A stretch of 64,000 nt of DNA. It comes from Escherichia phage vB_EcoM_FB. The notes under the pieces are model-generated. The model was not told where the DNA came from, did not search any database, and worked only from the letters and a program-made list of their open reading frames with translations. The stretch lies in the sequence record MT682711.1. One strand, written 5' to 3'. The translations under genes were made by a program, and so were the position numbers. Below are positions 11,849-56,264 of this stretch, piece by piece (within the stretch, counting starts at the first letter, position 1; every line of letters starts with the position of its first letter).

Positions 11849-11878
11849 ATAGTAACATGTGAGAATCTTGCTGTAAAC
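11849..11878 (-). promoter_or_regulatory. T4-type early promoter (GTTTAC -35, TACTAT -10), cassette copy
   Basis: Minus strand GTTTAC, 18-nt spacer, TACTAT; followed by conserved leader ...CATGAGGAGATTAAAAATG. Confidence 0.6.
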
Positions 11879-11884
11879 AACTTT

Positions 11885-11892
11885 TATAAATA
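11885..11892 (+). promoter_or_regulatory. T4-type late promoter TATAAATA (gene 24)
   Basis: Exact TATAAATA 29 nt upstream of gene 24 ATG. Confidence 0.65.
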
Positions 11893-11920
11893 AACATATA
11901 CCCTCAATAAGGAAAGCGCA

Positions 11921-13204
11921 ATGGCAAAGATTAACGAATTACTGCGCGAGTCAACAACTACTTCCAGCAACTCATTGGGTCGCCCTAATCTTGTTGCTTT
12001 GACCCGTGCTACAACCAAATTGATTTACCGTGATATTATCGCCGAACAACGTACTAGCCAGCCTATTGCTGCACTGTATGGTGTCAAATATCTTACCCCT
12101 GATAATGAATTTAGTTTCCAGACAGGTGCCTCTTATGGTGGTGAAGTTGGTTCTAAAGACCGTGAAACTATCCCAGAACTCACAGATAAGGCCCAGGCGA
12201 TTGCTCAGGGTGAATATTTCAAGTACCAGAATGTGGTTTATAAGGCTCTTAAAGCAAGCCCACTCGCGTCCACTAGCGCCACAGAATTGGCTGATGCTCT
12301 TCAAGAAGGTTTAGTGTCATTAACATGTCGTCTGGTTCCTGATGCTGCCCATACCACTAAATTTGAAGCGAGTGATGTAGAAATCTCTGATGCTGTATTC
12401 CAGGTTAATAAATGGAATGCTCCGGTTAAGACCCGTAAATTGAAGACGGCTTTGACTGTAGAATTAGCGCAGGATATGGAATCAAATGGCTTTGACGCGC
12501 CGGCGTTCTTAGAAGACCTCTTGGCTACAGTAATGGCAGATGAAATTAATAAAGACGTTCTGCAATCTCTAATAACCGTATCCAAACGTTATAAAGTTAC
12601 TGGTGTATCTGATAACGGCATCATCGATTTGTCTTATGACAGTGCTCCTGAATCTGCACGTAAACTTTATGAACTCGTTTGTGAGATGAATTCTGAAATC
12701 CAGAAAACTACTTCTTATTCTGGCACGTTTGTTGTGGCTTCAAGTCGTGTGGCTGCAATGCTTGCAGGTTCTGGCTGGTTAAAACATAAACCCGAAGATA
12801 ATAATTGGCTTCCGGAAACTGCATACGGATATTTGTTGAATGGTCTGCCTCTGTTTTGTGACGTTAACAGTCCATTAGATTATGTTACCGTTGGTGTTAA
12901 AGAGAATTACGGCGGTAATGAAGTTGTCGGTTCTATTTTCTACGCTCCCTATACCGAAGGCTTAGATTTAGATGACCAAGAACACGTCGGTGCTTATAAG
13001 GTTATTGTTGACCCGGATTCATTACAACCTTCTATTTCTCTGATGGTTCGTTATGCACTATCAGCTAACCCGTACACCGTGGCTAAAGACGATAAAGAAG
13101 CTCGTGTTATCGATGCAACCAATATGGATTTAATGGCTGGACAGAGCAATATGTCTTATCTGGTTGGCGTTAAACTTCCGGCAATTATTTACGAGGCTGA
13201 TTAA
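11921..13204 (+). CDS. 24: capsid vertex protein gp24
   Basis: 427 aa; N-terminus MAKINELLRESTTT... matches my recollection of T4 gp24; gp23-like fold family. Confidence 0.9.
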   Translation: MAKINELLRESTTTSSNSLGRPNLVALTRATTKLIYRDIIAEQRTSQPIAALYGVKYLTPDNEFSFQTGASYGGEVGSKDRETIPELTDKAQAIAQGEYFKYQNVVYKALKASPLASTSATELADALQEGLVSLTCRLVPDAAHTTKFEASDVEISDAVFQVNKWNAPVKTRKLKTALTVELAQDMESNGFDAPAFLEDLLATVMADEINKDVLQSLITVSKRYKVTGVSDNGIIDLSYDSAPESARKLYELVCEMNSEIQKTTSYSGTFVVASSRVAAMLAGSGWLKHKPEDNNWLPETAYGYLLNGLPLFCDVNSPLDYVTVGVKENYGGNEVVGSIFYAPYTEGLDLDDQEHVGAYKVIVDPDSLQPSISLMVRYALSANPYTVAKDDKEARVIDATNMDLMAGQSNMSYLVGVKLPAIIYEAD

Positions 13205-14484
13205 TGTCTAAGATTGTAGACCTAATTAAAGAATCCACATTGACGGCTGCCAGCTCGGTTGGCCGTCCTGCTCTTCTTTCATACACCCAAGCAACTAATA
13301 AACGAATCTTTAAAGCCCTAGTTGCTGAACAAAAAACAAATCAACCGGTTGCTGCTCTGTATGGGGTACGTGTACTGAATCCTGACGACAAAATGACTTA
13401 TCTTGGTGGAGCAACATTTGCGGGCCAGATTGGTATGACGGAACGTGAAAATATTCCAGAATTTACTGATTCATCTACAGCTTATGCGGTCGGTGATATG
13501 TTCCAGTTTGAAAGCGTAGTGTTTAAAGTTCTAGAAGCATCTCCTTTCGCCGGAACCACAGAAACCAACCTCAGCGAAGTTATTTCTGAAGCAGTGGCAG
13601 CCGGCCATATCCGTATGGTGTCGGATGCTGCTATTACTTCTAAATTTGAACAAGGCCATCCTGAAATTGCTGAAACCGGATTCCGTATCGACAAATGGCA
13701 ATCTGAAGTTAAATCACGTAAACTGAAAACTTCATTGACAGTCGAATTAGCCCAAGACCTAGAATCTAACGGGTTTAATGCTCCTAATTTCGTTGAAAAT
13801 CTGCTAGGCATTCAAATGGCAGAAGAAATTAATAAGGATGTATTACAGTCATTAATTACCGTGAGCTCTCGTTTTAAAGTCCAGGGTGTTTCTGAAAAGG
13901 GTGTATTAGACCTTACCAACCCTCGCTACGATAATGCCCAGGACCGTGCTCGCACATTATATTATTATATGTGTGAGATGAACTCTGCCGTCCAACGACA
14001 GACTTCTTTTGCCGGGACTTATGCAGTAGCTAGTTCTCGTTGTGCTGCTATTCTCGCCGCCTCTGGTTGGGTTGAGAAAAAGGAAGACCAGGACGAATTG
14101 GCTTATGGTATATTAAAGAATGGCCTACCACTTTATGCTGATATGAATAGTCTATGTGATTATGTTATTGTTGGTGTAAATGCCCAGATGGGTGAAGGAC
14201 AGACGGTCGCATCTTTATATTATGCGCCTTATACGGAAGGTTTGAATGTGGTTGACGAAGAAGGTGATACTTCAGTTGGTGAATTTAAGGTTATTGTTGA
14301 CCCGGAAAGCTTACAACCTACAGTAGCATTGCTTGCTCGTTATGCATTGACTGCAAACCCTTATACCGTCGCTAAGGACGATAAAGAAGCCCGCATTATT
14401 GATGGTTCTGATATGGACAAAATGGCTAATCAAAGTCAATTGAGTTCTTATCTCGGCGTAAAATTACCGCCTTTAGAAAAATAA
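13204..14484 (+). CDS. second gp24-like capsid vertex protein (divergent tandem paralog)
   Basis: 426 aa; shared blocks with the first copy (SRKLKT.LTVELAQD.ESNGF.AP.F.E.LL, EINKDVLQSLITVS, ANPYTVAKDDKEAR); start overlaps stop of first copy. Confidence 0.85.
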   Translation: MSKIVDLIKESTLTAASSVGRPALLSYTQATNKRIFKALVAEQKTNQPVAALYGVRVLNPDDKMTYLGGATFAGQIGMTERENIPEFTDSSTAYAVGDMFQFESVVFKVLEASPFAGTTETNLSEVISEAVAAGHIRMVSDAAITSKFEQGHPEIAETGFRIDKWQSEVKSRKLKTSLTVELAQDLESNGFNAPNFVENLLGIQMAEEINKDVLQSLITVSSRFKVQGVSEKGVLDLTNPRYDNAQDRARTLYYYMCEMNSAVQRQTSFAGTYAVASSRCAAILAASGWVEKKEDQDELAYGILKNGLPLYADMNSLCDYVIVGVNAQMGEGQTVASLYYAPYTEGLNVVDEEGDTSVGEFKVIVDPESLQPTVALLARYALTANPYTVAKDDKEARIIDGSDMDKMANQSQLSSYLGVKLPPLEK

Positions 14485-14504
14485 AAGGGACCTTACGGTC
14501 CCTT
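14485..14504. terminator. bidirectional terminator hairpin between the second gene 24 copy and rnlB
   Basis: AAGGGACC-TTAC-GGTCCCTT flanked by A-run and T-run; lies between convergent genes. Confidence 0.65.
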
Positions 14505-14510
14505 TATCGT

Positions 14511-15518
14511 TTATTTGGATACTAGTTCAACCCATACATGTCTTAATGTTTCTTTTACGCACTCAACGAGCTGCTTTTTAACTTCAACGGGATTTTCCGC
14601 ATCAGTTAATTCCAATTCTTCACGGGCGGCTTCTTCAAGGATATCCTGGACTGTCAAGCCCATCACCTTTCCGAAATCCTTCGGCGATACTTCGCCAATC
14701 TTACTGATGACATTGTTAATGCGGTTAACAGTCACATAATCGGTGAATTGCCACATCAAATCCATATCGTCTTGGGACAATACCACTGCAACTTTAATAG
14801 GCTTATCAGACTTTTTCTTCTCGCTGAATTTAGAGTTCTTACATTTAATCGCCACACGATTTCCGTTTGGAAGCCAGGTAGGAACATCAGGTTTCAATAC
14901 AAAGCCTTCAGCCGTGAATACCTTACCTTCTACCTTAGGAATAAAATCGGTTGAGTTTGCAATAGTTAAGCCTGCGTTATCCACTGCAAAATTATAATCA
15001 GGAACAACTGAATCAAAATCATTAGGAAGTTTAATAAGGTCTTCAAAGCTACCAGTGGCCAGACATGGAGCTACCTTAAACTTATGGATAATACAGAAGG
15101 CTTCCATCAATGTATCGGTTAGAACAGATTCTGAGCCATCTTCTTTAGTAACTCGGATATCGAACACATAAAAGTCTTTATCGCCGTAGTCCACATTCTT
15201 CTGGATGCCTGTCCCAGCGAATTCGCCATAAATCTGGTATGACTGATAATTAATCGATTCAATTAGATGTTGAACTGATTTAATAGAATCAGCGTAGTTC
15301 TTAAGTACAATTTCATAACCATAGAAATCTTCAGCAGGGAGGATAGGGCCAGTGCGCTTGGCGCATGTGACTGCGTCACGTTCTATGATTAAACTAAAGT
15401 TGGTTCCATGAATCTTCTCACGTGCTACCCATTCACCACCAGTCAAACCGTTAGTACGGAGTTTTTCGATAAACTTACTGTTGTAGTGGTTTTCGAGACT
15501 GCTATATTTCTTGAACAT
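14511..15518 (-). CDS. rnlB: RNA ligase 2 (Rnl2)
   Basis: 335 aa; [20 protein letters not shown]... with adenylation motif KIHGTN; strong match to my recollection of T4 Rnl2. Confidence 0.9.
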
Positions 15519-15632: not shown

Positions 15633-15842
15633 TTACTTTGAACTAGAACGCGCTTTGCGCCGAACCTTGTTGTTCAATCTTTTACGATAAACAACCTTTT
15701 CTTTCGCTTTAAATTTGGCCTTGGCTTGTTCTACATCAACCCATGCTTTGGCCATGTCCTTAGCGGTCCCGCCCATTTTTTTAGCAATTTCTATAAAATT
15801 CAACCCAGATTCGTGTAAAAAATGTACTTTAACCTTATCCAT
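15633..15842 (-). CDS. hypothetical small basic protein (24.2/24.3 slot), possible helix-turn-helix
   Basis: ATG at 15842 (track ORF starts earlier); 69 aa; SGLNFIEIAKKMGGTAKDMAKAW then a lysine/arginine-rich tail. Confidence 0.45.
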   Translation of the reverse strand: MDKVKVHFLHESGLNFIEIAKKMGGTAKDMAKAWVDVEQAKAKFKAKEKVVYRKRLNNKVRRKARSSSK

Positions 15843-15924
15843 AACAATTCTCTCGTTGAGTTGGTAAACCCATCTTAACATAGAATTTTTAACTTGTAAA
15901 CAGGAATTTTGTACTTTAATGCAA

Positions 15925-15944: not shown

Positions 15945-15945
15945 A

Positions 15946-21744: not shown

Positions 21745-22497
21745 ATGGCTAATATAGTACGTTGTGAAATGCCTGATGGAGTCCACCGATTTAAACCTTT
21801 TACAGTAGCTGATTATCGTGATTTTATTTTGATTCGAAATGACATGAATAATAAATCGCCTGAAGAGCAAAAACAAATTTTAGGTGAGTTACTGGAAGAA
21901 TACTTCGGTGAATATCCTATGTCATGGCGCCCATATATGTTCATTGAACTTTATACGTCATCACTCGGCAAGACCAAAATTCCTATCCGATACACTTGTA
22001 GTAAGTGTGAAAAGGATAGACAAGTTTTATTCAATTTGAAACAGACCAAGTTAGATAATCCCACAATTGAAGTGGCCGGCTTGAAGCTAACATTCAAATT
22101 TCCGGAAATAGAATATCAAGACAAATCCGAATTGATTCTGAACACCCTCCAAACCGTGGAAGATGAAAACGGGAAATATAATTGGACTGACCTTTCTGAA
22201 GAAGACCAATTAGCCGTAATAGATGCTATAGACTTATCCACTTTAGAGGATATAGTCAAACAAACTAGCCCTATTAATTTTGAACTAAAATATGGATGCT
22301 GTAATCGTAGAACAATTACGTATACCGATATTTTAGAGGTGTTTAAGCTTATAGTCAACCCGGATGAGATATTTTTATTTTACCAAATAAACCATTTATT
22401 GGTAAAGAACAATTATTCATTAGAAAGCATTATGCAGATGATTCCAATCGAACGCGGTATTGCTTTGTCTTTGGTTGAAAAGGACCTTAAGAAATGA
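21745..22497 (+). CDS. 51: baseplate hub assembly catalyst gp51
   Basis: Start re-set to ATG 21745 (AAGAGGA SD); [27 protein letters not shown] matches my recollection of the T4 gp51 N-terminus. Confidence 0.85.
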
Positions 22498-27948: not shown

Positions 27949-28239
27949 TTATTTACGGAACGAAATGAAACCTGCTGCAGTCATTAGTGGTTGCTTTTTA
28001 ACAAACACCGTAACTGAAATAGGAGCTTCAGATTCGAGCTGTCCTGTCACTACACCATTAAAGATATTTTCAGTTTGTTCCGGCTGAGAAAAGTTCTCAA
28101 CAGGACGGATATCAAATTGCTTATCTTCACCGAAAACTCGACGCAATTCATTACCAACTGCACTGTCAAACTCTTCGGAAGCAGGGATAACGTTTTCAAC
28201 TACCAGTTCTTGACCATTAAAACGGAATGCAGATTTCAT
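27949..28239 (-). CDS. hypothetical protein (96 aa), alt.-x slot
   Basis: ATG 28239; early promoter and GAGGAG leader upstream; no recognizable motif. Confidence 0.5.
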   Translation of the reverse strand: MKSAFRFNGQELVVENVIPASEEFDSAVGNELRRVFGEDKQFDIRPVENFSQPEQTENIFNGVVTGQLESEAPISVTVFVKKQPLMTAAGFISFRK

Positions 28240-28267
28240 AATGTTCTCCTCATGTTTGTGTAAGGTA

Positions 28268-28297
28268 ATAGTAACACCATCCTTGGCGTTTGTAAAC
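28268..28297 (-). promoter_or_regulatory. T4-type early promoter, cassette copy, immediately after the Alt-A stop
   Basis: Minus strand GTTTAC, 18-nt spacer, TACTAT, then leader ...ACATGAGGAGAACATTATG. Confidence 0.55.
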
Positions 28298-30348
28298 TAC
28301 CCTTGTACAAATTTATATTGGAGAGCGTCGATATCTATACAAGAAGCTAACAAGCCAAGACCTCTGTCTGAGTTCTTTTTCTTCTCATTAGAAACAAATG
28401 AATCAAAAGAAAGCTCACCACCATCTTTATAGACAACGAGTTCTCCTGTTTCCATTAGGGCATCACCGTCGTATACTACAGCTTCATTAAGTTCATCTGC
28501 AGTCATTACTTCGGCTTGAATAAACTTATTGTTAGAACGAGTAGTCCCGTTGTTATATGAGGCATCTGTAATTTTATTGATTTTAACCATCAACCCTCTA
28601 GGAAGAATTACTTCCATTTCGTTAGAAGGGGCTAGGTCTCCACCAGGTAAAACGACATTTACTTTATTAGCACCAGTAATGGCCCAACCGATACCTACTA
28701 AGGTATCTTTAACTGAATATACCAAGCCTTCATCAGATTTATCTAAAGCAACATCTCGACGCTTTTCATCAGGTAAAACACCAACACCAGAATCGGTCAT
28801 CCATGTACCAAAAATATTTGGATAAAGTGATGTTGATACAAAGTTCCTGAAATAGAATACTTTGTTTTTAACCATAGCCAGGTAAATATCAGGAATCATT
28901 CGTTGAGAACGATAAAGCGTGATACCTTCCGGAAGTTGTTCACCATTTTCAAAAGCAGAATCTAAGTTATTGATAGCTTTTTCTATCTCTTCATTAGTCA
29001 AAATACTGGTTCTTGTATTAGGGTCGCGGATTCCTAAAAGAACATTATTCATATCTTCGTAACCGGAGCCAACGTATTCACGAATACCACGCTTCTGTGC
29101 TGGTGTATAACGAGATACGTCTTTATTTTCTACAATAGAATGTAATTGCCAACCCGCGGTAAGAGCATAAACACGCAGTTCGCGCTGAATAATTTTGGTC
29201 TTTATAGCATTCCAAGAATTTTCGGCTAACTCTATGGCTTCGTGATAACCTAAGTGAGAATGCCGGGCCATTAGTTTTTGAAGCCAAGGGCCTTTATATT
29301 CTTCGATGACATCATCAACCACTGAAGCATAATTTTCTAGAGCTTTTACTGAAGTCACATTTAATCCATGTAATTTCTCAAAAGCTCTCATTTTTATGTC
29401 GGTATTAATTTCTTCCATTTTATCTTCTGGAATAAGAAGGTTGTCTTTAAACGACATACCGCCGGTATTAGCACTAATGGTATTTTCTAAAGCCAAGAAA
29501 GAATTAGAAATAACCTTTATTTCATTTGCTTCCGGCATTAAAGGACCTGTAGCAGGTTTATTCAATTCGACAGCATTAGACTCAAATTTCTTAAACATTG
29601 GAGTTTCGAAACGAGATGATTCTAAGGATTGCGACATAGCAATAGCACGACGTGAAATCTTAGTCTTGGTAATGACAGCCTTATCAGTACGTTTCTCTTC
29701 AACTTTAGCTATACTTGCCGAGACGGCTTCGGCCTTACTTACGGCCTGGCCAGTTTCCTTAGAAACATAAACTTCGCCAACTTTAGACTCAACCTTAGTA
29801 TAAAGCTCGGCATCAATTTCAGGCATACCCTTAATATCTTCAATATTAGTACCACGACGTACTAAAAGAACATAGGTATGTTTTCCGGTGAATTGGTACA
29901 TGGCATCAACAACTTTAAACTTACCACCAGTACGAGCCATAGCTAAACGAGCTAATACACGCTGAACAGTAGGACCCTTACCTTTCATTTTCTTGGTAGG
30001 GAACCGGAAAAGAACTGCATCCATTTTAAGTTTGTTTACTTGTTCGTATACAGTATCAAAAATGGTATTCAGCGTACCAAGTGGGTCAGAACCTAACCCA
30101 CCTTTCAACTCGGCTGGGCTACCCTTAGCAGACAAACTCATCAAAATAACATGAACATATTTGTCTCCGGGCTTAACCATTTTAATAGCGTCTCCTTGAG
30201 ACGCATAAGATACCATACGAGCAACCAGGTTATCATTACCTGGCGCTTTAATAGAGAAAATCTGTGGGATACCGGAACCTGGTTTAAGATTTATTACTGG
30301 ATAGTTTTTATCGGAATCACTATCAAAAACCTCGTTTAAATTTTCCAT
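28297..30348 (-). CDS. alt: Alt-like ADP-ribosyltransferase, paralog A
   Basis: 683 aa (T4 Alt about 682); R-S-E ART motifs (YRSQRM, FRNFVSTS, NEMEVILPRGL); strong match to my recollection of T4 Alt. Confidence 0.85.
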   Translation of the reverse strand: MENLNEVFDSDSDKNYPVINLKPGSGIPQIFSIKAPGNDNLVARMVSYASQGDAIKMVKPGDKYVHVILMSLSAKGSPAELKGGLGSDPLGTLNTIFDTVYEQVNKLKMDAVLFRFPTKKMKGKGPTVQRVLARLAMARTGGKFKVVDAMYQFTGKHTYVLLVRRGTNIEDIKGMPEIDAELYTKVESKVGEVYVSKETGQAVSKAEAVSASIAKVEEKRTDKAVITKTKISRRAIAMSQSLESSRFETPMFKKFESNAVELNKPATGPLMPEANEIKVISNSFLALENTISANTGGMSFKDNLLIPEDKMEEINTDIKMRAFEKLHGLNVTSVKALENYASVVDDVIEEYKGPWLQKLMARHSHLGYHEAIELAENSWNAIKTKIIQRELRVYALTAGWQLHSIVENKDVSRYTPAQKRGIREYVGSGYEDMNNVLLGIRDPNTRTSILTNEEIEKAINNLDSAFENGEQLPEGITLYRSQRMIPDIYLAMVKNKVFYFRNFVSTSLYPNIFGTWMTDSGVGVLPDEKRRDVALDKSDEGLVYSVKDTLVGIGWAITGANKVNVVLPGGDLAPSNEMEVILPRGLMVKINKITDASYNNGTTRSNNKFIQAEVMTADELNEAVVYDGDALMETGELVVYKDGGELSFDSFVSNEKKKNSDRGLGLLASCIDIDALQYKFVQG

Positions 30349-30351
30349 TAT

Positions 30352-32436
30352 TTACCCTTGGATGAATTTTTCTGGGATGTCATAGAGGTCTATGCATGAA
30401 GCCAAAAGAGGCAGTACATCAAACCGTGTAGATTTAACAAATGAATCAAAAGATACGGGGCTTTCGGAAGTATCGAAGTCATCTTGATATACGACCAACT
30501 CGCCGGTTTCCATTAGTACGTCACCATCATATACCACAGATTCTTGAAGCTCATCTGTTGTCATAACTTCAGCTTGGATGAGTTTTGTATTACTAGATGT
30601 TGTTCCATCATTATTAGAAGCATCTGTTATTTTATTAACTTTGACCATTAATCCACGCGGTAGAATAACTTCGGCTTCAGTTGCTATTCCGAGATTTCCT
30701 GGATATACGACATTAACTTTATGAGCCCCATCAATGGCCCATCCTATTTGAACCTTAACGTAATCGGGATTTTCCTTATACGCTCTTATTTCATTAGGAT
30801 TAATAGTTATTCCTTCTTCATTTTTATCAACTGTCAATTCGTTGCGAACTTCCGGTTCTAAAAGACCAATACCAGCGTGCGTAACACCAAAACGTCCGAA
30901 AATTATAGGAGTTAAAGAAGTAGATACAAAATTTCTAAAATAAAACACTTTATTTTTAACTAGTGCTTCGTATATAGGAGCAGTCATACTCTGGGCACGA
31001 TAAACTGTAATGCCTTCCGGTATACGGTCACCATTTTCAAAAGCTGAATCTAAATTATTTACAGCGGATTCGATATCTTTTTCGCTCATAACCTCATAGT
31101 TCTGAGGATTATAACGTCCTAAAAGAAGATTATTTATGTCTGTATATCCTGAACCACAATATTCTCTGATGCCGCGCTTTTGTGATGGGGTATATTTAGA
31201 GCCCTCACGAGCAATAGTAATATCGACCATAATACCACCACCTACACCAGCAAAACTATACACACGTTTTTTAATGAACTTAGTCTTGGCTGCTTTCCAC
31301 TTGGACTCGGTTAATTCATTCCAGACGTCGTCAGGTTGGCCTTTACGAGTTCTGTTATGGATAGCCAGCCACTCGCCTTTATATTCTTCGAAAATGGTAT
31401 TAATGGTAGAGGCATATTTTTCCAGGGCTTTAACAGATGTCAAAGGTTCATTTTTGATAGCTGTAAGAATTTTCTCTTTAATTTTCTCTTGGATTTCACC
31501 AATACCGTGAAGTGGGAACAATTTATAGTCGTAATGCAATTCTTCAGCAGTGCCTTCAGCTACTATATTAGCAACCTTATTTTTAGCCGCAGGAGAATTG
31601 TTATTAGTGACCATTTCCTGGGCCTCAGGGATTAATGGAACTGTTGCCGGTTTATTAAAATCTACTGCAGTAGCTTCATATTTCTTAAACAGCTCACTTT
31701 CATTACGATAAGATTCTAACGATTGACTTGCCGCAATAGCACGTCGAGAAATCTTAGTCTTGGTTATAACCATTTTATCAGTGCGACGTTCTTCAACCTT
31801 AGCAATACTACCGGCGATAGCAGTTTCTTTAGTAACCTGCACGCCTTCTTTTTTAGAAATATAAACTTCACCGACATCAGAATCTACCTTAGTATACAAT
31901 TCAGCATTAATTCCAGGCATACCTTTGATATCTTCTATATCAGCTTGTTTACGAACTACCAGGATGTAAGTATGTTTACCGGTAAATTGGTACATAGCCG
32001 GAACTACTTTAAAACGTCCACCTGTTTTCTGTGCTACCAAACGTTGGATAATCCGTTGAACGATAGGGCCTTGACCTTTCATTTTCTTAGTAGGGAAACG
32101 GAACATCACGGCATCCATACGAAGCTTTTTAACTTGGTCATAAACCACATCAAAAATAGTATTAATCGCATCTACGGGAGTAGGGCCTAGGCCACCTTTA
32201 AGTTCGGCAGGCGAACCTTTAGCTGAAAGGCTCATAAGGATAACGTGGGCATATTTATCACCCATCTTAACCTGTTTAATAGCATCACCTTCAGAAGCGT
32301 AGGATACCATACGCGCCACTAATTGGGATTCTGCGTCACCAATCTTCCAAATCTGGGGTACTTTAAGTTTTGGGTTCAAGTTTACTGTAGGCAGTGTGCC
32401 TTCGGACTCAAACACTTCATTTAATTGTTCGGTCAT
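30352..32436 (-). CDS. Alt-like ADP-ribosyltransferase, paralog B
   Basis: 694 aa; same architecture and ART motifs (YRAQSM, FRNFVSTS, TEAEVILPRGL); differs from A mainly between the STS and ExE motifs; only 3 nt separate B stop from A start. Confidence 0.85.
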   Translation of the reverse strand: MTEQLNEVFESEGTLPTVNLNPKLKVPQIWKIGDAESQLVARMVSYASEGDAIKQVKMGDKYAHVILMSLSAKGSPAELKGGLGPTPVDAINTIFDVVYDQVKKLRMDAVMFRFPTKKMKGQGPIVQRIIQRLVAQKTGGRFKVVPAMYQFTGKHTYILVVRKQADIEDIKGMPGINAELYTKVDSDVGEVYISKKEGVQVTKETAIAGSIAKVEERRTDKMVITKTKISRRAIAASQSLESYRNESELFKKYEATAVDFNKPATVPLIPEAQEMVTNNNSPAAKNKVANIVAEGTAEELHYDYKLFPLHGIGEIQEKIKEKILTAIKNEPLTSVKALEKYASTINTIFEEYKGEWLAIHNRTRKGQPDDVWNELTESKWKAAKTKFIKKRVYSFAGVGGGIMVDITIAREGSKYTPSQKRGIREYCGSGYTDINNLLLGRYNPQNYEVMSEKDIESAVNNLDSAFENGDRIPEGITVYRAQSMTAPIYEALVKNKVFYFRNFVSTSLTPIIFGRFGVTHAGIGLLEPEVRNELTVDKNEEGITINPNEIRAYKENPDYVKVQIGWAIDGAHKVNVVYPGNLGIATEAEVILPRGLMVKVNKITDASNNDGTTSSNTKLIQAEVMTTDELQESVVYDGDVLMETGELVVYQDDFDTSESPVSFDSFVKSTRFDVLPLLASCIDLYDIPEKFIQG

Positions 32437-36311: not shown

Positions 36312-36677
36312 TTAGATGTCGAATTCGTTCAGAACTACATCAAAGATTGCTTCCAGGTGTTCAGGTTTAGCTCGGTTGCTCAGGATGTGACGAATCCAAG
36401 TTTTAACCAGAAGCTTACGATTAACACCGTTCCAGCAAGGATGGGTACCTAAATCACGTTGACGGAAATCATCATCTAAAGCGATTTTAAAAGTAGAACC
36501 TTCCATTGTGATTGAAACCGTAATACCATTTTCAAAGCGCATATAAACGTAGTTAGGAGTCATGCACTGTTCGATTTCGCACACCGCGCCGTTGTTGTGT
36601 TTCCACAGGCAAATAACTTCAGAAGAACCAGCGATACCGTTAGAAACATATTTACGTTCGAAGTTGATGTAGTTCAT
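36312..36677 (-). CDS. hypothetical protein (121 aa)
   Basis: ATG 36677 preceded by conserved promoter/leader cassette. Confidence 0.55.
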   Translation of the reverse strand: MNYINFERKYVSNGIAGSSEVICLWKHNNGAVCEIEQCMTPNYVYMRFENGITVSITMEGSTFKIALDDDFRQRDLGTHPCWNGVNRKLLVKTWIRHILSNRAKPEHLEAIFDVVLNEFDI

Positions 36678-36718
36678 TTTATTCTCCAGTTTGTTTTCGT
36701 ATTATTTGGTACAGGTCT

Positions 36719-36748
36719 ATAATAACACAACCTGTACCAAAGTAAAAC
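36719..36748 (-). promoter_or_regulatory. early promoter cassette copy (GTTTTAC -35 variant, TATTAT -10)
   Basis: About 50-nt upstream region nearly identical to the copy at 37084-37135; inverted repeat GGTACAGG/CCTGTACC around the -10. Confidence 0.45.
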
Positions 36749-36750: not shown

Positions 36751-37083
36751 TTATTTCACAACATTCCAATTTTTCATATCAAGTTTACCAACTTTTTTCA
36801 TCTGAGCAATCAGACGTTCAGCACGTGTACGGGCATTAACATAATAGAATTCACCATTTTTGTTTTCTTCAATACGACCAGTAATTACAGTTTTCAGTTC
36901 ATAAATCCAACCTGTAAAGAAGTTGTGAAGCTCGATGGTGAATGTAAAATCAGTACCCATACCTTCAGTTGTTTCAACTTCGATGATATCACCTTCAACT
37001 GCAGTCAGGACCCACATGGTTTCTTGATATTCACCGTTGAAACATTTAGCTTTAACAGATGCATTCAGATTTACAGTTTTCAT
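36751..37083 (-). CDS. hypothetical protein (110 aa)
   Basis: ATG 37083 preceded by cassette leader identical to that of the 36312-36677 gene. Confidence 0.55.
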   Translation of the reverse strand: MKTVNLNASVKAKCFNGEYQETMWVLTAVEGDIIEVETTEGMGTDFTFTIELHNFFTGWIYELKTVITGRIEENKNGEFYYVNARTRAERLIAQMKKVGKLDMKNWNVVK

Positions 37084-37124
37084 TTTATTCTCCAGTTTGT
37101 TTTAGTATTATTTGGTACATGTCT

Positions 37125-37152
37125 ATAGTATCATGCCTACCGGAGATGTACA
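37125..37152 (-). promoter_or_regulatory. early promoter cassette copy (TGTACA -35-like, TGATACTAT extended -10)
   Basis: Minus strand TGTACA, 16-nt spacer, TACTAT with upstream TG. Confidence 0.45.
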
Positions 37153-37180
37153 CCCTTTTTTAAAGATTTAGAAACAAAAA

Positions 37181-37200
37181 TGGGACTCCGAAGAGTCCCA
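37181..37200 (-). terminator. rho-independent terminator after the 53-aa ORF
   Basis: TGGGACTC-TTCG-GAGTCCCA followed on the minus strand by TTTTTGTTTC. Confidence 0.7.
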
Positions 37201-37366: not shown

Positions 37367-37628
37367 TTTAAATCTCTTAAATTAGGATGCAGGACTTATT
37401 GGCGTTGCCTGCGCAAGCCCTCAAGGGGAACATAGGTTTCGGATATTTAACGACAGGATAACCATAAACCTCGTCATCATACCAACCACGACTTAGACAG
37501 ATAACCTTTTTCTGACGCGTGATAGTACAAAATACATTCAAGAGGTACACCGTAAAACTGTTGGGGTCTTAAAACTATAATGATTCGCAAATCATTAATC
37601 AAACAGTTCGACGGCTCCTCGATTTAAC

Positions 37629-39824: not shown

Positions 39825-40053
39825 CAATATACACCCGCTGCGCTTCGACCAGACCATCAGAACCAAGTTTCAATTGGGTAACCTGGCCGCCATTTTTAAG
39901 ATTAACTATAACCAATACCGCACGTGGTGTTTCCTGGATTACTCGCAGAGTTGCATCAGGAAAATGTACAGAAACCTTATTAATCAGGGCCTGAGCAAAT
40001 TCTTTAACTTTAACTTGGAACTGCTCTACAGTAATAGGTTGTTCGCTCAGCAT
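39817..40053 (-). CDS. hypothetical protein (78 aa)
   Basis: ATG start overlapping upstream stop (TAATG). Confidence 0.4.
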   Translation of the reverse strand: MLSEQPITVEQFQVKVKEFAQALINKVSVHFPDATLRVIQETPRAVLVIVNLKNGGQVTQLKLGSDGLVEAQRVYIDA

Positions 40054-40607
40054 TAGATGGTCTCCAACTTAAGTTGTTTGGTAGTGGTAGCTTGGGTAAC
40101 GTCGCCTTTAACAATATAACACACTTGTTGGAACGAATTAGTCAAAAGCTCTTCAGCCTGACGATCGGCTTGTTCCTTTGTGTTATGGCGAGAATGAACT
40201 TCAATCTTACCATTTTTAACAATAAGCACTTTCCAATCGGCTGGAGTTTTAATAGGTTTGATTTCAGGGTTCTGGAAAACTAACTGCACTTCTTTAGGGT
40301 CTACCACTTCGATAAAGTATTCGAATTCATGGCTAAAAAAGCCCGCTGAATTAAAAAGAACACTATTTGCATCGTCAGGATTACCTGTCATTTTGCTCGG
40401 GTCGACAAACATCATCTCGTCATATACACGAATTCGGCTTACACGTTCACGCCCATTATGGTAATCAATTTCAACTTCAAACGGATTCATACCTACATAC
40501 TTAGCAAAAGCCGTATTGAGGCCATAAGCACCGTTATTAGTGAATTTGTTTTTAGTGTATTCACCAACGAACTTGTAAAACTTACGCTCTTCAAAGAACT
40601 TACTCAT
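40053..40607 (-). CDS. hypothetical protein (184 aa)
   Basis: ATG start; no recognizable motif. Confidence 0.5.
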   Translation of the reverse strand: MSKFFEERKFYKFVGEYTKNKFTNNGAYGLNTAFAKYVGMNPFEVEIDYHNGRERVSRIRVYDEMMFVDPSKMTGNPDDANSVLFNSAGFFSHEFEYFIEVVDPKEVQLVFQNPEIKPIKTPADWKVLIVKNGKIEVHSRHNTKEQADRQAEELLTNSFQQVCYIVKGDVTQATTTKQLKLETI

Positions 40608-40674
40608 TTCGATTTCCTCATTTGTTTCGGTAAGGTCATCATATCACCGTCCTTGGTGAAAGTAAACACCTTTT

Positions 40675-41366: not shown

Positions 41367-42570
<1,204 letters not shown>

Positions 42571-42604
42571 AATAATTTCCTCAATTTTTATAATCCGTAG
42601 GAGC

Positions 42605-42634
42605 ATTATACTCTGCTCCCAAGAGTTTGTAAAC
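42605..42634 (-). promoter_or_regulatory. T4-type early promoter (GTTTAC -35, TATAAT -10)
   Basis: Minus strand GTTTAC, 18-nt spacer, TATAAT. Confidence 0.55.
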
Positions 42635-43378: not shown

Positions 43379-43866
43379 TTGGTAATAATCTCGATGATGT
43401 CATCACGTGACAGGGAATTAATAAGAACTGTTTTAGGATTTTCACACTGAATTTTGTACGTTTCGAACATAAAACACAATTCTTCAGCGGTATGGTAAGG
43501 ACTTGAAATGCCAAGGCGATTAAACTTGTCGCTTAATGGGTCACAAATCAAATAGAAAGTGATGCCTGAGATTTTAACATTAGGTTGGCTAATATTAATG
43601 AACACCTCGGCATCGTACTTGGAAAGGTTGTTTCGGAGAAACTCGACCATAGAGTTAACAGCTTGAGGCATTGCTTCACGCTTTTCTTCAGCGTAACGGG
43701 TAGAGTATTCTTTTTGCTTGATTTTCTTTTTAGCATTTTTAGCTAAAGTAACACGAAGATCGGTCAGGTAACCTACTGCACGAGAACCTTTAAAAACTTG
43801 GATGCCGTCAGTAGAGTCACCAAAAGCCTTAACAACCATTTCGTTAGTAATCATTTGCATATTCAT
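43366..43866 (-). CDS. alc: Alc-like protein (transcription unfolding on cytosine DNA), by position and size
   Basis: 166 aa; between the spanins and rnlA as in T4; cassette promoter upstream. Confidence 0.55.
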   Translation of the reverse strand: MNMQMITNEMVVKAFGDSTDGIQVFKGSRAVGYLTDLRVTLAKNAKKKIKQKEYSTRYAEEKREAMPQAVNSMVEFLRNNLSKYDAEVFINISQPNVKISGITFYLICDPLSDKFNRLGISSPYHTAEELCFMFETYKIQCENPKTVLINSLSRDDIIEIITKCLN

Positions 43867-43896
43867 TTTGTTTTCTCCTCATTAGTTGGTAAGTCT

Positions 43897-43925
43897 ATAC
43901 TAACACGTCATGAGGAGATGTAAAC
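43897..43925 (-). promoter_or_regulatory. early promoter cassette copy (GTTTAC -35, TAGTAT -10) overlapping the rnlA stop
   Basis: Minus strand GTTTAC...TAGTAT, leader CAACTAATGAGGAGAAAACAAAATG. Confidence 0.55.
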
Positions 43926-50280: not shown

Positions 50281-51311
<1,031 letters not shown>

Positions 51312-51336
51312 TTTATTCTCCTTAGTTGATAAGGCT

Positions 51337-51366
51337 ATAGTATCACTACCATAGCCTGGTGTAAAC
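51337..51366 (-). promoter_or_regulatory. early promoter cassette copy (GTTTAC -35, TACTAT -10)
   Basis: Minus strand GTTTAC...GATACTAT; inverted repeat GGCTAT/ATAGCC around the -10. Confidence 0.55.
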
Positions 51367-51594
51367 TTATTTTTGAATTAAGCCCATATAAAATTTAGCG
51401 TCTTCCGGGTGCATACCGTCACAATACTCGTCAGCCATAAAGCGGGTAAGGTCTTCAAGAGGACCTTGGACTTCAATTTGCATACTACAGAATTGGGTAT
51501 CTTTAATATGGGTCATAACTAAAGAAGGATAACGATTACGGATAACTTCGTAAGTGTATTCAAAATCAACGATATCAATATTAACCTTAGCCAT
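51367..51594 (-). CDS. hypothetical protein (75 aa, frd.x slot)
   Basis: ATG 51594 after GAGGAA SD of cassette leader; the track start at 51612 is the ATG embedded in the leader. Confidence 0.5.
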
Positions 51595-51626
51595 TTTATT
51601 TTCCTCACTCATTAGTTGATAGGTCT

Positions 51627-51655
51627 ATAGTATCATGTTTAAAGGCATTGTAAAC
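51627..51655 (-). promoter_or_regulatory. early promoter cassette copy (GTTTAC -35, TGATACTAT -10)
   Basis: Minus strand GTTTACAATGCCTTTAAACATGATACTAT. Confidence 0.6.
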
Positions 51656-51657
51656 AC

Positions 51658-51918
51658 TTATTTTTGAATTTTATCAAGCCATTTACCAAGCTTAATCATT
51701 TCTTTGGTAGCTTTTTCCATACTTCTAAATTTAACCAGTAAAGGTTGGGCATCAACACCCATAACTAAGGTGGTTACAAGACTATGTTCACCTACAAGCC
51801 ATAATGAATAAGTTTGGATATCGAGCCCGTAATTTCGGTCTTTATGAACTCGTACACCCATCACTTCAAATTTCTCACTGGCTTTTTCTACTGCATCCAG
51901 GAAATCATCTTTAGTCAT
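51658..51918 (-). CDS. hypothetical protein (86 aa, frd.x slot)
   Basis: ATG 51918 directly after upstream stop (TAATATG); track ORF starts at TTG 51930. Confidence 0.45.
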   Translation of the reverse strand: MTKDDFLDAVEKASEKFEVMGVRVHKDRNYGLDIQTYSLWLVGEHSLVTTLVMGVDAQPLLVKFRSMEKATKEMIKLGKWLDKIQK

Positions 51919-51919: not shown

Positions 51920-52291
51920 TTAAATTCCAAAGGTAGCTTTAATCAAGGCAATGACTTCCGCTGCATTTTTGTGATTAACCTGCACATGAATGGTTTGGGT
52001 ATCAACATCAGGAACATCGCCAACAACTTCCAGGAAGTGACAGAATTCCCATTCAGCGAGTTCAAAGTACTCATCAGGCCCACCCATACTATTCAGGATA
52101 GTGCCATCTTTCATTTCAACTTTTTCAACAAAATAATCACCTTCAATATAACTCATATCCAAGACTTTGAAGGAACTACCATGTTGTTCCATCAACTTGA
52201 CCATGCACGAATTATAATTGTCATCAGGACTACCAGCGATGAAACGTTTTTTAGCAGCAGGGTCTAATACGTAAATTTTACCAGTTTCCAT
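51920..52291 (-). CDS. hypothetical protein (123 aa, frd.x slot)
   Basis: ATG 52291 preceded by cassette leader ...CATGAGGAAATAAAAATG. Confidence 0.55.
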   Translation of the reverse strand: METGKIYVLDPAAKKRFIAGSPDDNYNSCMVKLMEQHGSSFKVLDMSYIEGDYFVEKVEMKDGTILNSMGGPDEYFELAEWEFCHFLEVVGDVPDVDTQTIHVQVNHKNAAEVIALIKATFGI

Positions 52292-52320
52292 TTTTATTTC
52301 CTCATGTAGTTGATAGGTCT

Positions 52321-52349
52321 ATAGTATCATGTTTAAAGGGGTTGTAAAC
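52321..52349 (-). promoter_or_regulatory. early promoter cassette copy (GTTTAC -35, TGATACTAT -10)
   Basis: Minus strand GTTTACAACCCCTTTAAACATGATACTAT, directly downstream of the gene 32 terminator. Confidence 0.6.
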
Positions 52350-52364
52350 CATTAAATGCCAAAA

Positions 52365-52386
52365 TGGGAAGACCGAAGTCTTCCCA
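52365..52386 (-). terminator. rho-independent terminator after gene 32
   Basis: TGGGAAGAC-TTCG-GTCTTCCCA followed on the minus strand by TTTTGGCATTT. Confidence 0.7.
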
Positions 52387-52401
52387 TTATAAATCAATAA
52401 C

Positions 52402-53365: not shown

Positions 53366-53411
53366 CACGTTTACCTTGATAACTAGGTTTTGAAGATGAA
53401 GTAATTATATA

Positions 53412-54029
53412 TCACTTCGAATAAAGCATTTTTAACTTAATGAATTCAGGGTCATCATTAGGAACCCAACCCTCATTAAATTGTTTAATCATACTCTTTG
53501 ATGTAGTTTCACTAACATTTATACCAGAGTTAATGAGACGCCTCCATCCACAAGCTCTTCCACTAGAATTAATTATACAATAATTAGTATAAGCAATATC
53601 ACTAAGCATCCAATCTAAAGGGTTTGCTCTAGAAGTTTTCCAAGGACGGTAATCGGGTTGATTCATATAGTTAGCAGCTTTCATATGGGCTCTAACTTCA
53701 GGACGTTTGGCTGGGTGAGTGCATCCAAAGACTCCAAATCCGCCACCGGCATAAACCAAATTAAAATAATCATCATTATCTCTAGCTTGAACTTCCAATT
53801 GTTCTGAACGTTCAATATTAATAACAATATCAAATGGCGTTATAGCCAAAATTTCAACAATAGGTTTTTCTTCTTCGATGGCCTCTTTAAATCTTGATTG
53901 CTCGCAAGAGGTCCAATACTCTTTACCTTTACAGTCAATAATCACGCCATTTTCAAAAGTACAATTAGTTTTAGAACCTATGTACGAAAACGGCTTAATA
54001 TTATTAGCCTGACGATTAAGCCAAGTCAT
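53412..54029 (-). CDS. hypothetical protein (205 aa) in the slot T4 uses for segG
   Basis: First ATG at 54029 (track ORF starts at TTG 54047); no SD; no confident domain match. Confidence 0.45.
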   Translation of the reverse strand: MTWLNRQANNIKPFSYIGSKTNCTFENGVIIDCKGKEYWTSCEQSRFKEAIEEEKPIVEILAITPFDIVINIERSEQLEVQARDNDDYFNLVYAGGGFGVFGCTHPAKRPEVRAHMKAANYMNQPDYRPWKTSRANPLDWMLSDIAYTNYCIINSSGRACGWRRLINSGINVSETTSKSMIKQFNEGWVPNDDPEFIKLKMLYSK

Positions 54030-54043
54030 TTTATAAACTATAT

Positions 54044-54697
54044 TCAAAATTTACAACCCTTAATTGTTTCAATGAACAATTTACGAGCCTCAATAGAATC
54101 TACTATAAGAATTTTTTTGTAAGCATTTAATTTAGTCGAATACTTAGACCACACTAAATCGTTAGTCTTTTCATCGTGCTTATCAATTATATCCATAAAT
54201 GAATCAAGCAAAATAAACGTTTCGAATGAAATAACATTCGATTGAAGGAGCTTAAAAATATAACTCGAGTTAACTTTTTTATTATAATCAAAAATTTCAG
54301 AAAGCGCTTGAACTTCCACTTTCTTACTAAAATAATAAATGTTTTTGATATCATCCTCAAAAACTTGTTTTATTCTTTTAAGTCTACCGATATATTCTCG
54401 GTAAAAGACTAAGGCGTCAGCATCACTGATGTCGCCAATCCATGCGTCTTGGTTAGCTACCAAGTTACTCATGAATATAAGAGCAAGCTCTTTCAAAGTG
54501 TATTTATCACTCAATTTCTCAAAGAAATATTTGTCACGACGTTTTTGATAAGCCGTATCAGAGATTCGCATGACCCAGTTGTATTTGATAACGTCGTATT
54601 TGGCGTTGAAATGATGCTTTAACATCAAATATAGGGAATATACACTTTTGCCGTTCACCATACGGTTATTGTTTGGTGGCATGCGAATCTTAATCAT
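54044..54697 (-). CDS. 59: helicase loader gp59
   Basis: 217 aa; near-identical to my recollection of T4 gp59 (GKSVY.LYLM.K, ANQDAWIGDISDADALVFYREYIGRLK). Confidence 0.9.
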   Translation of the reverse strand: MIKIRMPPNNNRMVNGKSVYSLYLMLKHHFNAKYDVIKYNWVMRISDTAYQKRRDKYFFEKLSDKYTLKELALIFMSNLVANQDAWIGDISDADALVFYREYIGRLKRIKQVFEDDIKNIYYFSKKVEVQALSEIFDYNKKVNSSYIFKLLQSNVISFETFILLDSFMDIIDKHDEKTNDLVWSKYSTKLNAYKKILIVDSIEARKLFIETIKGCKF

Positions 54698-54996
54698 AAC
54701 AAGAAATCCAGGGTATTAGTCTTTTGCGTTCGAGCCATTGAAGGTCGAAGCAAGTTATCATCAATGGCTTCGTTCATAATTTTATCAATAATTCCTGCAG
54801 GCAAATAACGAGCAAAGTTACCTTCAGGGATGCTGTTCTCTTCCAACCATGCGGTAGCCGCTTCGAGGTAACTACAACCTTCAGCCTCAACAAAGGCCTC
54901 AATATCAAGGCCATTCTGTTGTTTGTTTACCAATACATGGACGGGTTCAGAAGCGGTATTAACCGCTCCATCAAAATCATTCAAAGATTGTGTCAT
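54694..54996 (-). CDS. 33: late transcription accessory protein gp33
   Basis: 100 aa; position between 59 and dsbA. Confidence 0.8.
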   Translation of the reverse strand: MTQSLNDFDGAVNTASEPVHVLVNKQQNGLDIEAFVEAEGCSYLEAATAWLEENSIPEGNFARYLPAGIIDKIMNEAIDDNLLRPSMARTQKTNTLDFLL

Positions 54997-55246
54997 ACAG
55001 TTCTACCACTTCAGTTTTTTCGTCTTCGAAACGTTCGCGAGTGCCTTTATGGTACAGGGAGAACAGCTGGTTAAACATTTTACCGTCTACACCAAGTTCA
55101 GTCTTAGCACGGTCTTTGATATCTTTAATTTCGTCACCGTAGGCTTCCATTTTTAATTTAGTATCGGAAGCGGTTTTAATCAGTTGTGCTAATGTGTTAC
55201 CATGTTCTTCTTGATTGAATTCAACTTTCACTTTTTCTTTAGCCAT
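54977..55246 (-). CDS. dsbA: double-stranded DNA-binding protein DsbA
   Basis: ATG 55246 with AAGGTGA SD (track ORF starts at GTG 55255); 89 aa as in T4. Confidence 0.8.
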   Translation of the reverse strand: MAKEKVKVEFNQEEHGNTLAQLIKTASDTKLKMEAYGDEIKDIKDRAKTELGVDGKMFNQLFSLYHKGTRERFEDEKTEVVELYDTIFE

Positions 55247-55256
55247 TATATTCACC

Positions 55257-56204
55257 TTAATAAAAATCAGCTACTGTAGCGGTTAGTTTAGACAAACCGG
55301 ATTTAACGAAATAAGGATAAACTTTAGATTTCGAAGGTTTGTTATACGTATTATATCTTTCAGTAATTAAAGCAACAATATCATCTGGAATAAAGTCCAT
55401 ATCAATTAAGATTTGGTTTTCACAGAAACGTTCATATTGTTCTTCAGTAAGAAGTGTTTTAATTATATCATGGTCATAATAATTAAGAGCAATTGCTTCA
55501 AGTTCCTTGGCACGAGTGCTAGGAGTACGCTCGCCTTCAACCATGGTCAACCAATAATCACCACGAACTTTAATACTCGCGACGTTATCTTTACGGTCAC
55601 CTTTAACAACCTTGGTTACACAATCCAGTAATGAATCACCAGATTTTGTTTTGACGAATTTTTTCTGCATTGGAGACCATTGTTTTACCCCAGGGAATTT
55701 ATGGAGTTGAGTAAAGTCGCCATCAGAGGAACCAATCATAACCGGATGGCCTAAAGCCGTAAGGATTCGGGTTAAAACAGCAATATGGTCATCAGCCTCG
55801 ACAGTATCGATGTTCATAACAATATAAGGCATGTTATGTTCAAGCTCATCAATAATCAAATGCATTGCCGTAAATAAGCCTTCCCAATCAAATAATGATT
55901 CTTCACGAGCCTTGGCACGGTTTTTCTTATAATAAGGTGAATAGCGACGTCGCCAATAACCTGATTTAGAGTTATCAACACAAATAACCAGTTGGTTGTA
56001 ACCTTGTTTTTTAAAGTCTTTAATGTTTTTCTTAATTGAATTCAACACGAGGTGTCGAAGCATTGCTGTAGTTACTTTAGGAAATCCAGCATTTTCACCA
56101 AATTCTTGGAATGCTGCTGCCATAATGATTTGGCTAAAGTCTAACAACAAGAATCCATCTTTTTGACGTTCTTCTTCAGGAAGTAAAAAATCTAAATCGT
56201 TCAT
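55257..56204 (-). CDS. rnh: RNase H (5'-3' exonuclease, FEN-like)
   Basis: Start re-set to ATG 56204; conserved blocks GYWRR..Y.YYKKNR.KAREES, DDHIAVL, SSDGDFTQLHK, KDNVAS.KVR. Confidence 0.9.
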   Translation of the reverse strand: MNDLDFLLPEEERQKDGFLLLDFSQIIMAAAFQEFGENAGFPKVTTAMLRHLVLNSIKKNIKDFKKQGYNQLVICVDNSKSGYWRRRYSPYYKKNRAKAREESLFDWEGLFTAMHLIIDELEHNMPYIVMNIDTVEADDHIAVLTRILTALGHPVMIGSSDGDFTQLHKFPGVKQWSPMQKKFVKTKSGDSLLDCVTKVVKGDRKDNVASIKVRGDYWLTMVEGERTPSTRAKELEAIALNYYDHDIIKTLLTEEQYERFCENQILIDMDFIPDDIVALITERYNTYNKPSKSKVYPYFVKSGLSKLTATVADFY

Positions 56205-56235
56205 ATGAACCTCTGTCCAATTAGTGTAGAGGTTC

Positions 56236-56264
56236 ATTATATCATGGGTTTTAAGGAAGTAAAC
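56236..56264 (-). promoter_or_regulatory. T4-type early promoter (GTTTAC -35, TGATATAAT extended -10) for rnh
   Basis: Minus strand GTTTACTTCCTTAAAACCCATGATATAAT. Confidence 0.6.

Follow-up and report, generated by a model that had tools for sequence, protein, structure and literature searches.

Why does one promoter-plus-leader sequence recur in front of so many small genes of Escherichia phage vB_EcoM_FB, and does it say anything about where these genes came from? We addressed this question in a 64,000-nucleotide stretch of the phage (sequence record MT682711.1; hereafter, the window), in which the initial annotation had listed ten copies of a minus-strand module, likened them to mobile cassettes thought up for the shuffling of accessory genes in T4-type phages, and pointed to the genes behind them as the best candidates for recently acquired functions. 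By megablast, the window belongs to the JS98/Bp7/IME281 group of T4-like coliphages (genus Dhakavirus), and IME281, WG01, Bp7 and MX01 are 96-97.6% identical to it over most of 28-56.5 kb. We hold with good confidence that the repeats are early promoter and translation-initiation units of Dhakavirus (host sigma-70, T4 'Pe'-type), a joint explanation that includes exchange between relatives, RegB control and insulation by a hairpin.

Early promoter and translation-initiation units of the window

A broader promoter scan brought the number of units in the window to 12, each of them on the minus strand. The units are laid out as an A/T-rich tract, a -35 box GTTTAC(A), a spacer of 17-18 nt, an extended -10 box (TGn-TACTAT or TATAAT), a conserved start region AGACCTATCAAC, of the form (AGA)CCTATCAAC, and then a leader of about 25-40 nt that ends in a strong Shine-Dalgarno sequence (SD) and ATG. 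Aligned on the -10 box, they give the consensus aaaaA..GTTTACa..(spacer)..caTGaTActATagaCcTAtcaActaa and, after it, an SD region rich in A, while conservation is at background past the ATG and past about -45. The A/T-rich tract 5' of the -35 box reads aaaaA..ggTTtaca in the 39 units of IME281 described below, and is likewise found in the 12 window units. At 51354-51379 and 51645-51670 (minus strand) the similarity between cassettes reaches the last codons of the upstream open reading frames (ORFs; ..ATTCAAAAATAA, that is, ..IQK stop), hence the A/T tract overlaps the end of the upstream ORF there.

The repetition of the module is real. Within the 64 kb, GTTTAC-N15-19-TACTAT has five matches, all on the minus strand, where 0.03 are expected, and the -10 box together with the start region, TACTATAGACCTATCAAC, has six matches with at most three mismatches against 0.1 expected. 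Five of these six are copies that had already been listed (11837, 43885, 51325, 51615 and 52309), and the sixth (22224-22241, plus strand) has no -35 box and was read as a chance match. In an unbiased repeat search, the cassettes were the only non-coding families with at least four copies in the window (D5, D6 and D8), and the two-copy families D10 and D18 also lie within cassettes; the remaining large repeats are the alt and gp24 paralogues. A generic sigma-70 scan was uninformative (46 sites found versus 54 expected), the enrichment being confined to the T4-type pattern.

The module stands directly upstream of all eight ORF starts for which it had been described (11819, 28239, 36677, 37083, 43866, 51311, 51594 and 52291), and all ten copies of the original list are genuine, but two more had been missed, at 15901 (leading to ATG 15842) and at 40667 (leading to ATG 40607). 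The two versions taken to be promoter-only (42605-42634 and 56236-56264) are promoters indeed (GTTTAC-N17/18-TATAAT), yet they possess leaders of their own, with the true starts at ATG 42570 and ATG 56204. The copies are not uniform: the leaders of the 36677 and 37083 copies are of a different, longer type (55 nt, 93% identical, D10), and the 28239 copy matches the consensus leader only loosely. The same scan found 39 credible units throughout the genome of IME281, the closest complete relative, all co-oriented with the early genes, and 29 units in 125 kb of T4. In IMG/VR, the exact 18-mer occurs in 5-9 copies per Dhakavirus genome and essentially nowhere else as a promoter.

Early promoters of T4 stand at orthologous positions of the syntenic region (alt.-3, alc, 30.7, 30.8, frd.3 and rnh) and at orthologous genes elsewhere (denV, regB, nrdC.8 and others), and the Dhakavirus units share with the T4 Pe promoters (PMC2988021) not only the positions at alt.-3, alc, 30.7, 30.8, frd.3, rnh, denV and regB, but also the UP-like tract, the -35 box GTTTAC, TGn, the -10 box and additional conserved positions; they differ in a -10 preference for TACTAT rather than TATAAT, and the window promoters, whose activity we infer, are predicted from sequence. 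It is known that the T4 early promoter consensus extends past the canonical elements (PMC2988021). Since CTATCAAC after the -10 box is also common in T4, the 5' half of what was called a leader belongs to the T4-type early promoter consensus. The leader was thus misjudged as an element in its own right: its 5' part, AGACCTATCAAC, is the start-region consensus common to T4, and its 3' part is the SD. An origin of the copies from one duplicated block, which the initial annotation had itself set against its proposal, was rejected, as the ORFs behind the copies belong to unrelated families. The similarity of the copies is, in our reading, mainly that of a shared promoter and translation-initiation region (TIR) consensus at ancient positions.

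Part of this initiation region appears to be a nuclease target. The RegB/S1 site is a single-stranded 11-nt GGAGRAYARAA (consensus GGAGAAUAAAA) in the SD of early mRNAs (PMC1702504, PMC3014915). The consensus has three matches in the 64 kb, either strand considered, and all are cassette SDs, each of the sequence GGAGAATAAAA and each abutting its ATG, namely those of 30.7 (36687-36677), 30.8 (37093-37083) and frd.1 (51321-51311). As in the RegB/S1 sites of T4 early mRNAs, GGAG in the SD is followed by an A-rich 7-mer; unlike in T4, several window cassettes have GGAA, and these SDs (frd.2, frd.3, 40607 and 42570) lie outside the consensus, GGAA being a poor RegB substrate (PMC1702504). Given that the three SDs equal the consensus, the phage RegB nuclease probably inactivates the predicted targets, i.e., the 30.7, 30.8 and frd.1 mRNAs, once the early period is over. 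The regB gene lies outside the window; in the relative IME281, RegB is annotated.

Exchange between relatives and the genes behind the units

In the published definition of promoter-early stem-loop cassettes (PeSLs; Arbiol et al. 2010, PMC2839356; Comeau et al. 2014, PMC4122927), an A/T tract is joined by an early promoter, a stem-loop whose position varies, an SD and ATG; the elements are present in many copies, close to indels that distinguish related phages, and undergo recombination among themselves. The resemblance of the window module to these cassettes of T4-type phages, suggested in the initial annotation, holds. In both, the five components make up one conserved unit of ~60-100 bp that recurs in multiple copies, oriented like the early genes and, here in some cases, situated beside indels or replacements between close relatives, and the stem lies upstream of, inside or overlapping the promoter. 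They differ in phage group, as PeSLs were described for RB49/phi1, PST/T4 and nt-1/KVP40, with JS98 mentioned only for the g43 locus, as well as in the -10 box TACTAT, the nearly invariant CCTATCAAC and stems that are not of the G-run/C-run kind. Moreover, the SD is the 3' arm of the stem in about a third of the units here, a feature not discussed in the two papers.

Comparison of the window with seven relatives for indels and breakpoints showed that several differences between them break inside cassettes (36746|37077, 37121, 42567-71, 51321|51375 and 52270-52333). The coding sequence of 30.8 has been swapped for a divergent allele between 36746, in the -35 box of the 30.7 unit, and 37077, at the 30.8 ATG. 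JS10 lacks both 30.7 and 30.8, and its junction falls in a microhomology (TGAGGAAAA) that a cassette leader shares with the 30.6 TIR in the SD region. In four relatives, the ATG behind the 42634 unit is the exact point at which an extra ORF of ~475 bp has been inserted, and in IME341 a copy of cassette plus frd.2 is inserted at the frd.1 cassette (breaks 51321|51375 and 51928-52333). Depending on the genome, frd.2 paralogue a, b or a+b stands behind one cassette, and the spacer at the orthologous frd.3 locus is of a stem-forming type in some genomes (JS98, IME281) and of the frd.2 type elsewhere, as in the window. Chimeric cassettes, in which arms of different types meet and the stem is broken, are present in JS98 (L042) and in JS10 (L007, ~13330-13400), the latter at the 30.7-30.8 deletion junction. 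The 30-55 nt of near-identity probably also serve as homology patches through which alleles, paralogues and whole cassette-plus-ORF units have been exchanged between relatives; exchange of this kind is the published behaviour of PeSLs.

Two side observations concern similar events in other genomes. An IMG/VR contig (L021, ~5744-5800) holds an orphan half cassette, GGATACTATAGACCTATCAAC, which has no -35 box and lies directly before a complete promoter, as if left behind by recombination. In T4, the alt.-3 and alc promoters with their leaders (~1033-1100 and ~14276-14340) are nearly identical over about 55 nt, which suggests, on sequence grounds, conversion between distant cassettes.

Could the copies be alike only as strong early promoters and ribosome-binding sites (RBSs) at inherited positions, with no shuffling of genes at all? 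Promoters at the same genes in T4 and vB_EcoM_FB, together with the old T4 families to which most genes behind the units belong, are what such a pure consensus would give, but it does not readily account for the chimeric cassettes, for alternative spacer types at one orthologous locus, for an allele swap flanked on both sides by cassettes, or for the copy of cassette plus frd.2 that entered another cassette in IME341. Moreover, paralogous copies share runs of 48-55 nt and 92-93% identity, more than a consensus needs. We therefore consider this explanation unlikely, although the indels themselves also speak partly in its favour and to that extent against ours: of the roughly 20 distinct events counted in 28-56 kb, about 7 involve a cassette, which is a modest enrichment relative to gene boundaries in general, and about two thirds of the early-region indels involve no cassette and concern homing endonucleases, an intron, cd.1, nrdA.1 and others.

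The proposal that recent acquisitions are best sought among the genes behind the cassettes fared worse. We identified the genes through synteny and Pfam. Seven of the ten scanned proteins fall in T4-named or T4-shared families (Alt.-3/DUF5498, Gp30.7, Gp30.8, Alc, Frd.1/DUF5417, Frd3 and DUF2774), whereas three have no Pfam family; an eleventh gene is RNase H by synteny with relatives, and the twelfth is annotated as Frd.2 in relatives. The 88-aa ORF at 11553-11819 (minus strand), which is in antisense orientation, has the late genes gp23 and gp24 on either side and falls in no Pfam family, gave tblastn matches in 119 phage records, all of them from Dhakavirus or the VR20/VR25/SP18 group and none from T4, so that it looks to be the only lineage-specific gene among those behind the window units. 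Since most of the genes are T4 families with T4 promoters and lineage specificity is limited to this ORF, recent acquisition is unsupported in general. That actively mobile cassettes have recently been bringing new accessory genes into the genome is, in our opinion, highly improbable: the 88-aa ORF, which has a cassette of its own and is restricted to two related genera, and the orphan half cassette beside a full promoter in one relative would fit such a process, but the T4-wide families and the orthologous T4 promoters do not, and neither a recombinase nor element ends were seen, the cassettes being devoid of target duplications.

A co-varying hairpin embedded in the promoter

The initial annotation had noticed that several copies follow a hairpin, and this is correct for three of them, with hairpins and a T run at 37199-37182, 52385-52366 and 15941-15928, the last being an addition to its list. 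The hairpin before the 15901 unit continues with ATTTTG, and 52385-52366 is a CUUCGG hairpin followed by ATTTTGG; a terminator scan listed only 37199-37182 as terminator-like. Most stems lie within the promoter itself, which had been overlooked.

In paralogous copies, the spacer just 3' of the -35 box is the reverse complement of a downstream segment, and the two carry compensatory changes. The arm pairs ATCTCCTGTAG/CTACAGGAGAT, CTCCAGTAG/CTACTGGAG and ATCTCCATTAG/CTAATGGAGAT co-vary, as does the pair of the alc unit given below, and frd.1 has AGGCTAT/ATAGCCT where the consensus has GGTCTAT/ATAGACC. When spacers were paired with cognate or non-cognate downstream halves, the arm energy was -12.3 versus -8.5 kcal/mol in IME281 (n=39) and -12.8 versus -7.8 kcal/mol in T4 (n=29), and 0 of 10,000 permutations reached the observed mean in either case. 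We further analyzed an ungapped alignment of 39 distinct cassettes, leaving out four IMG/VR rows in which the 18-mer has no promoter, from three metagenome contigs (L016, L035 and L044) and one phage contig (the half cassette of L021). In this set an 11-pair helix is 64% paired and shows double-sided changes in 47 cells, compared with 27 in shuffles; none of 500 shuffles reached the observed values, and all slid registers scored lower. T4 shares the structure: its 30.7 unit has the same stem as that of the window, its denV unit has the identical 18-mer and the same arms, and in the orthologous regB and nrdC.8 units the arm sequences differ between T4 and IME281 while the stem is kept.

In most units that have no terminator in front, the spacer is complementary to one of two downstream segments, and the stems fall into two classes according to the 3' arm. 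In class A it lies on the -10 box and start region, as in the window units of gene 30.7 (36675-36747; stem TTTGGTACAGG 36741-36731 / CCTGTACCAAA 36715-36705, enclosing the -10 box, z -3.9), of a 99-aa ORF (42568-42634, TATAAT as the -10 box, ATG 42570; stem TGGGAGCA 42621-42614 / TGCTCCTA 42605-42598, overlapping the -10 box, z -2.9) and of frd.1 (51309-51366; stem AGGCTATGGTA 51357-51347 / TACTATAGCCT 51342-51332, containing the -10 box, z -2.8). In class B, to which about 13 of the 39 IME281 units belong, the 3' arm lies on the SD. The alc unit (43864-43925) has a 9-bp stem, TCTCCTCAT 43918-43910 / ATGAGGAGA 43882-43874, which pairs the promoter spacer with the SD (-17.6 kcal/mol, z -4.1 in the window fold), and the stem of the gene 30.8 unit (37081-37153), TCTCCGGT 37146-37139 / ACTGGAGA 37096-37089, covers the SD, too; the unit at 11817-11878, with a weak, SD-covering stem (predicted at -8.4 kcal/mol), belongs here in part. 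The leader of rnh holds a 10-bp hairpin (GAACCTCT 56235-56228 / AGAGGTTC 56214-56207, z -2.9) that also covers the SD but, unlike the spacer-based stems of the other units, lies within its own transcript.

Does the inverted repeat act in RNA or in DNA? Sense-strand folding is more stable than antisense folding (p 0.037 in IME281, p 0.004 in T4), and 13% of the pairs in strong T4 stems are G.U; together these observations point to RNA rather than to a DNA cruciform. Stems are also dispensable where an RNA terminator precedes the promoter, which is difficult to reconcile with cruciforms or hairpins that serve as DNA targets of recombination or replication proteins. The authors of the PeSL study speculated on a DNA-binding or recombination role for the stems (PMC2839356), and breakpoints between the -10 box and the SD would agree with it, but we regard action in DNA as very unlikely.

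With regard to terminators, units directly behind an intrinsic terminator have stems at background level (mean -7.9 kcal/mol, n=13, versus -13.6 kcal/mol, n=55; p 0.002), hence upstream terminator and embedded stem substitute for each other. In addition, the 5' arm lies upstream of the unit's own predicted start site. It follows that only RNA reading through from a promoter further upstream can form the hairpin, and RNA begun at the unit's own promoter would lack the 5' arm. Strand asymmetry, the position of the 5' arm and the terminator trade-off together support insulation from upstream transcription. In the mechanism that we propose, the hairpin would shield the gene from transcripts that read through, in class B by masking the SD and in class A possibly by attenuation or processing of the read-through RNA, so that the gene would be expressed essentially from its own immediate-early promoter. 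According to predicted folds, the SD of IME281 units is mostly paired in read-through RNA in 18 of 39 cases and in the unit's own transcript in 0 of 39.

Several results count against this reading or narrow it. In read-through RNA, the SD is on average unpaired with a probability of 0.35 when the upstream half is cognate, and with the same probability, 0.35, when it is non-cognate; CTCC-like tracts are present in many spacers, and the SD of class A stays open. A general rule of SD masking was therefore rejected, as non-cognate halves mask equally on average, and we claim masking for class B only, where individual units show it in a cognate-specific manner (e.g., alc, 0.00 versus 0.47). The embedded stems have no U tract and are thus poor intrinsic terminators, so that classical intrinsic termination is unlikely and not favoured. 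Furthermore, 51655 and 52349, which are among the best-conserved copies of the window, have no stem, and start sites and timing in vB_EcoM_FB are inferred from the consensus and from T4.

Given these points, might the embedded hairpins be attenuators or 3'-end stabilisers of the upstream mRNA, with no effect on downstream translation? One RB49 PeSL stem-loop matched a terminator in reducing lacZ expression (PMC2839356), embedded stems take the place of intrinsic terminators, and class A stems leave the SD open; in class B, by contrast, the 3' arm is the SD itself and the bases flanking the SD co-vary with the spacer, and the stems are followed by no U tract. We consider this explanation possible, while leaning against it for the stems as a whole. 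For class A, attenuation or processing, by analogy with the RB49 stem-loop, is the more likely function.

Insulation of class B genes by SD masking has a parallel in T4 e, soc, 49 and I-TevI, in which RBS-sequestering hairpins contain an internal late promoter (PMC3014915). As in these genes, the SD would lie in the 3' arm and the promoter within the hairpin, own transcripts would be devoid of the 5' arm and translatable, and read-through RNA would be masked, a likeness that extends to class B (alc and 30.8 in the window) and not to class A. The difference lies in timing, since the internal promoter of e, soc, 49 and I-TevI is late and delays expression, whereas that of the units is of the early sigma-70 type and is predicted to limit expression to the immediate-early period. 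We put forward only tentatively, and as a rather doubtful extension, that in T4 and its relatives almost every early promoter without an upstream terminator is built into an RNA hairpin with its spacer as the 5' arm, and that this would confine dozens of genes, including alc and regB, to an immediate-early window, since read-through transcripts, delayed-early or middle, would fold over the start region or SD of the next gene and only transcripts from the genes' own promoters would be open to translation and RegB cleavage. Such a genome-wide device would mirror the late-promoter hairpins of e, soc, 49 and I-TevI. The co-varying, promoter-embedded hairpin common to T4 may be the one aspect that goes beyond the known description; our literature searches returned nothing specific on an early-promoter hairpin that masks the SD, but their coverage was incomplete and an earlier description is possible.

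Individual units, neighbouring genes and implications

In the annotated relatives, the minus strand runs in the order alt.-3, two alt paralogues, 30, 30.1-30.9, rIII, 31, cd, pseT, alc, rnlA, denA, nrdB, nrdA, td, frd, frd.1-3, 32, 59, 33, dsbA and rnh; the plus strand carries late genes, between 1 and 14.5 kb and again from 56.3 kb onward. The cassette of the 88-aa ORF (11817-11878) has its -35 box at 11878 and its ATG at 11819. That of a 69-aa DUF2774 protein (15840-15901; GTTTAC-N18-TAAGAT, ATG 15842) and that of a 184-aa protein without a Pfam family (40605-40667; GTTTAC-N18-TATGAT, ATG 40607) are the two that were absent from the earlier list. For the 184-aa protein (40053-40607, minus strand), PHROG gives a weak match (E 3e-5), the goF mRNA metabolism modulator. 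The alt.-3 (DUF5498) cassette (28237-28297), at which T4 has an orthologous promoter, overlaps the alt stop codon with its -35 box and has a hairpin inside the spacer. The 30.8 unit follows the terminator at 37182-37199. The frd.2 cassette (52289-52349) is located directly behind the gene 32 hairpin (52366-52385) and, like the frd.3 cassette (51592-51655), contains the exact 18-mer core and no embedded stem; the spacer of the frd.3 cassette is of the frd.2 type. Units 51655 and 40667 have neither a clear stem nor a terminator. The rnh early promoter (56202-56264; GTTTAC-N17-TATAAT, ATG 56204) is orthologous to the T4 rnh promoter. A possible extra promoter, GTGTAC-N17-TACTAT, lies at 37522-37550 on the minus strand, 155 nt upstream of 30.9, and relatives have small indels just 3' of it (37481|37526).

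Apart from the units, the window contains two tandem alt ADP-ribosyltransferase paralogues with about 73% DNA identity (28297-32436), of which WG01 and QL01 have a third copy, as well as two tandem gp24 head-vertex paralogues (11921-14484). Between genes 32 and 59, a 211-aa ORF (53412-54047, minus strand) is missing from most relatives (alignment break 53282|54042), and a homing endonuclease is annotated in this stretch in Bp7 and MX01.

As originally framed, the finding is ordinary: T4-like early promoters and PeSL-type cassettes have been rediscovered and extended to the JS98 group. The catalogue of early transcription units is nevertheless useful for annotation, the cassettes show where therapeutic coliphages exchange modules, and a few lineage-specific early genes are flagged, the 88-aa ORF at 11553-11819 among them. 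The hairpin could matter more, as it co-varies, is strand-asymmetric, trades off with terminators and is common to T4. If it does act on read-through RNA, it would explain how immediate-early and delayed-early expression are kept separate in the long co-directional gene arrays of T4-type phages.

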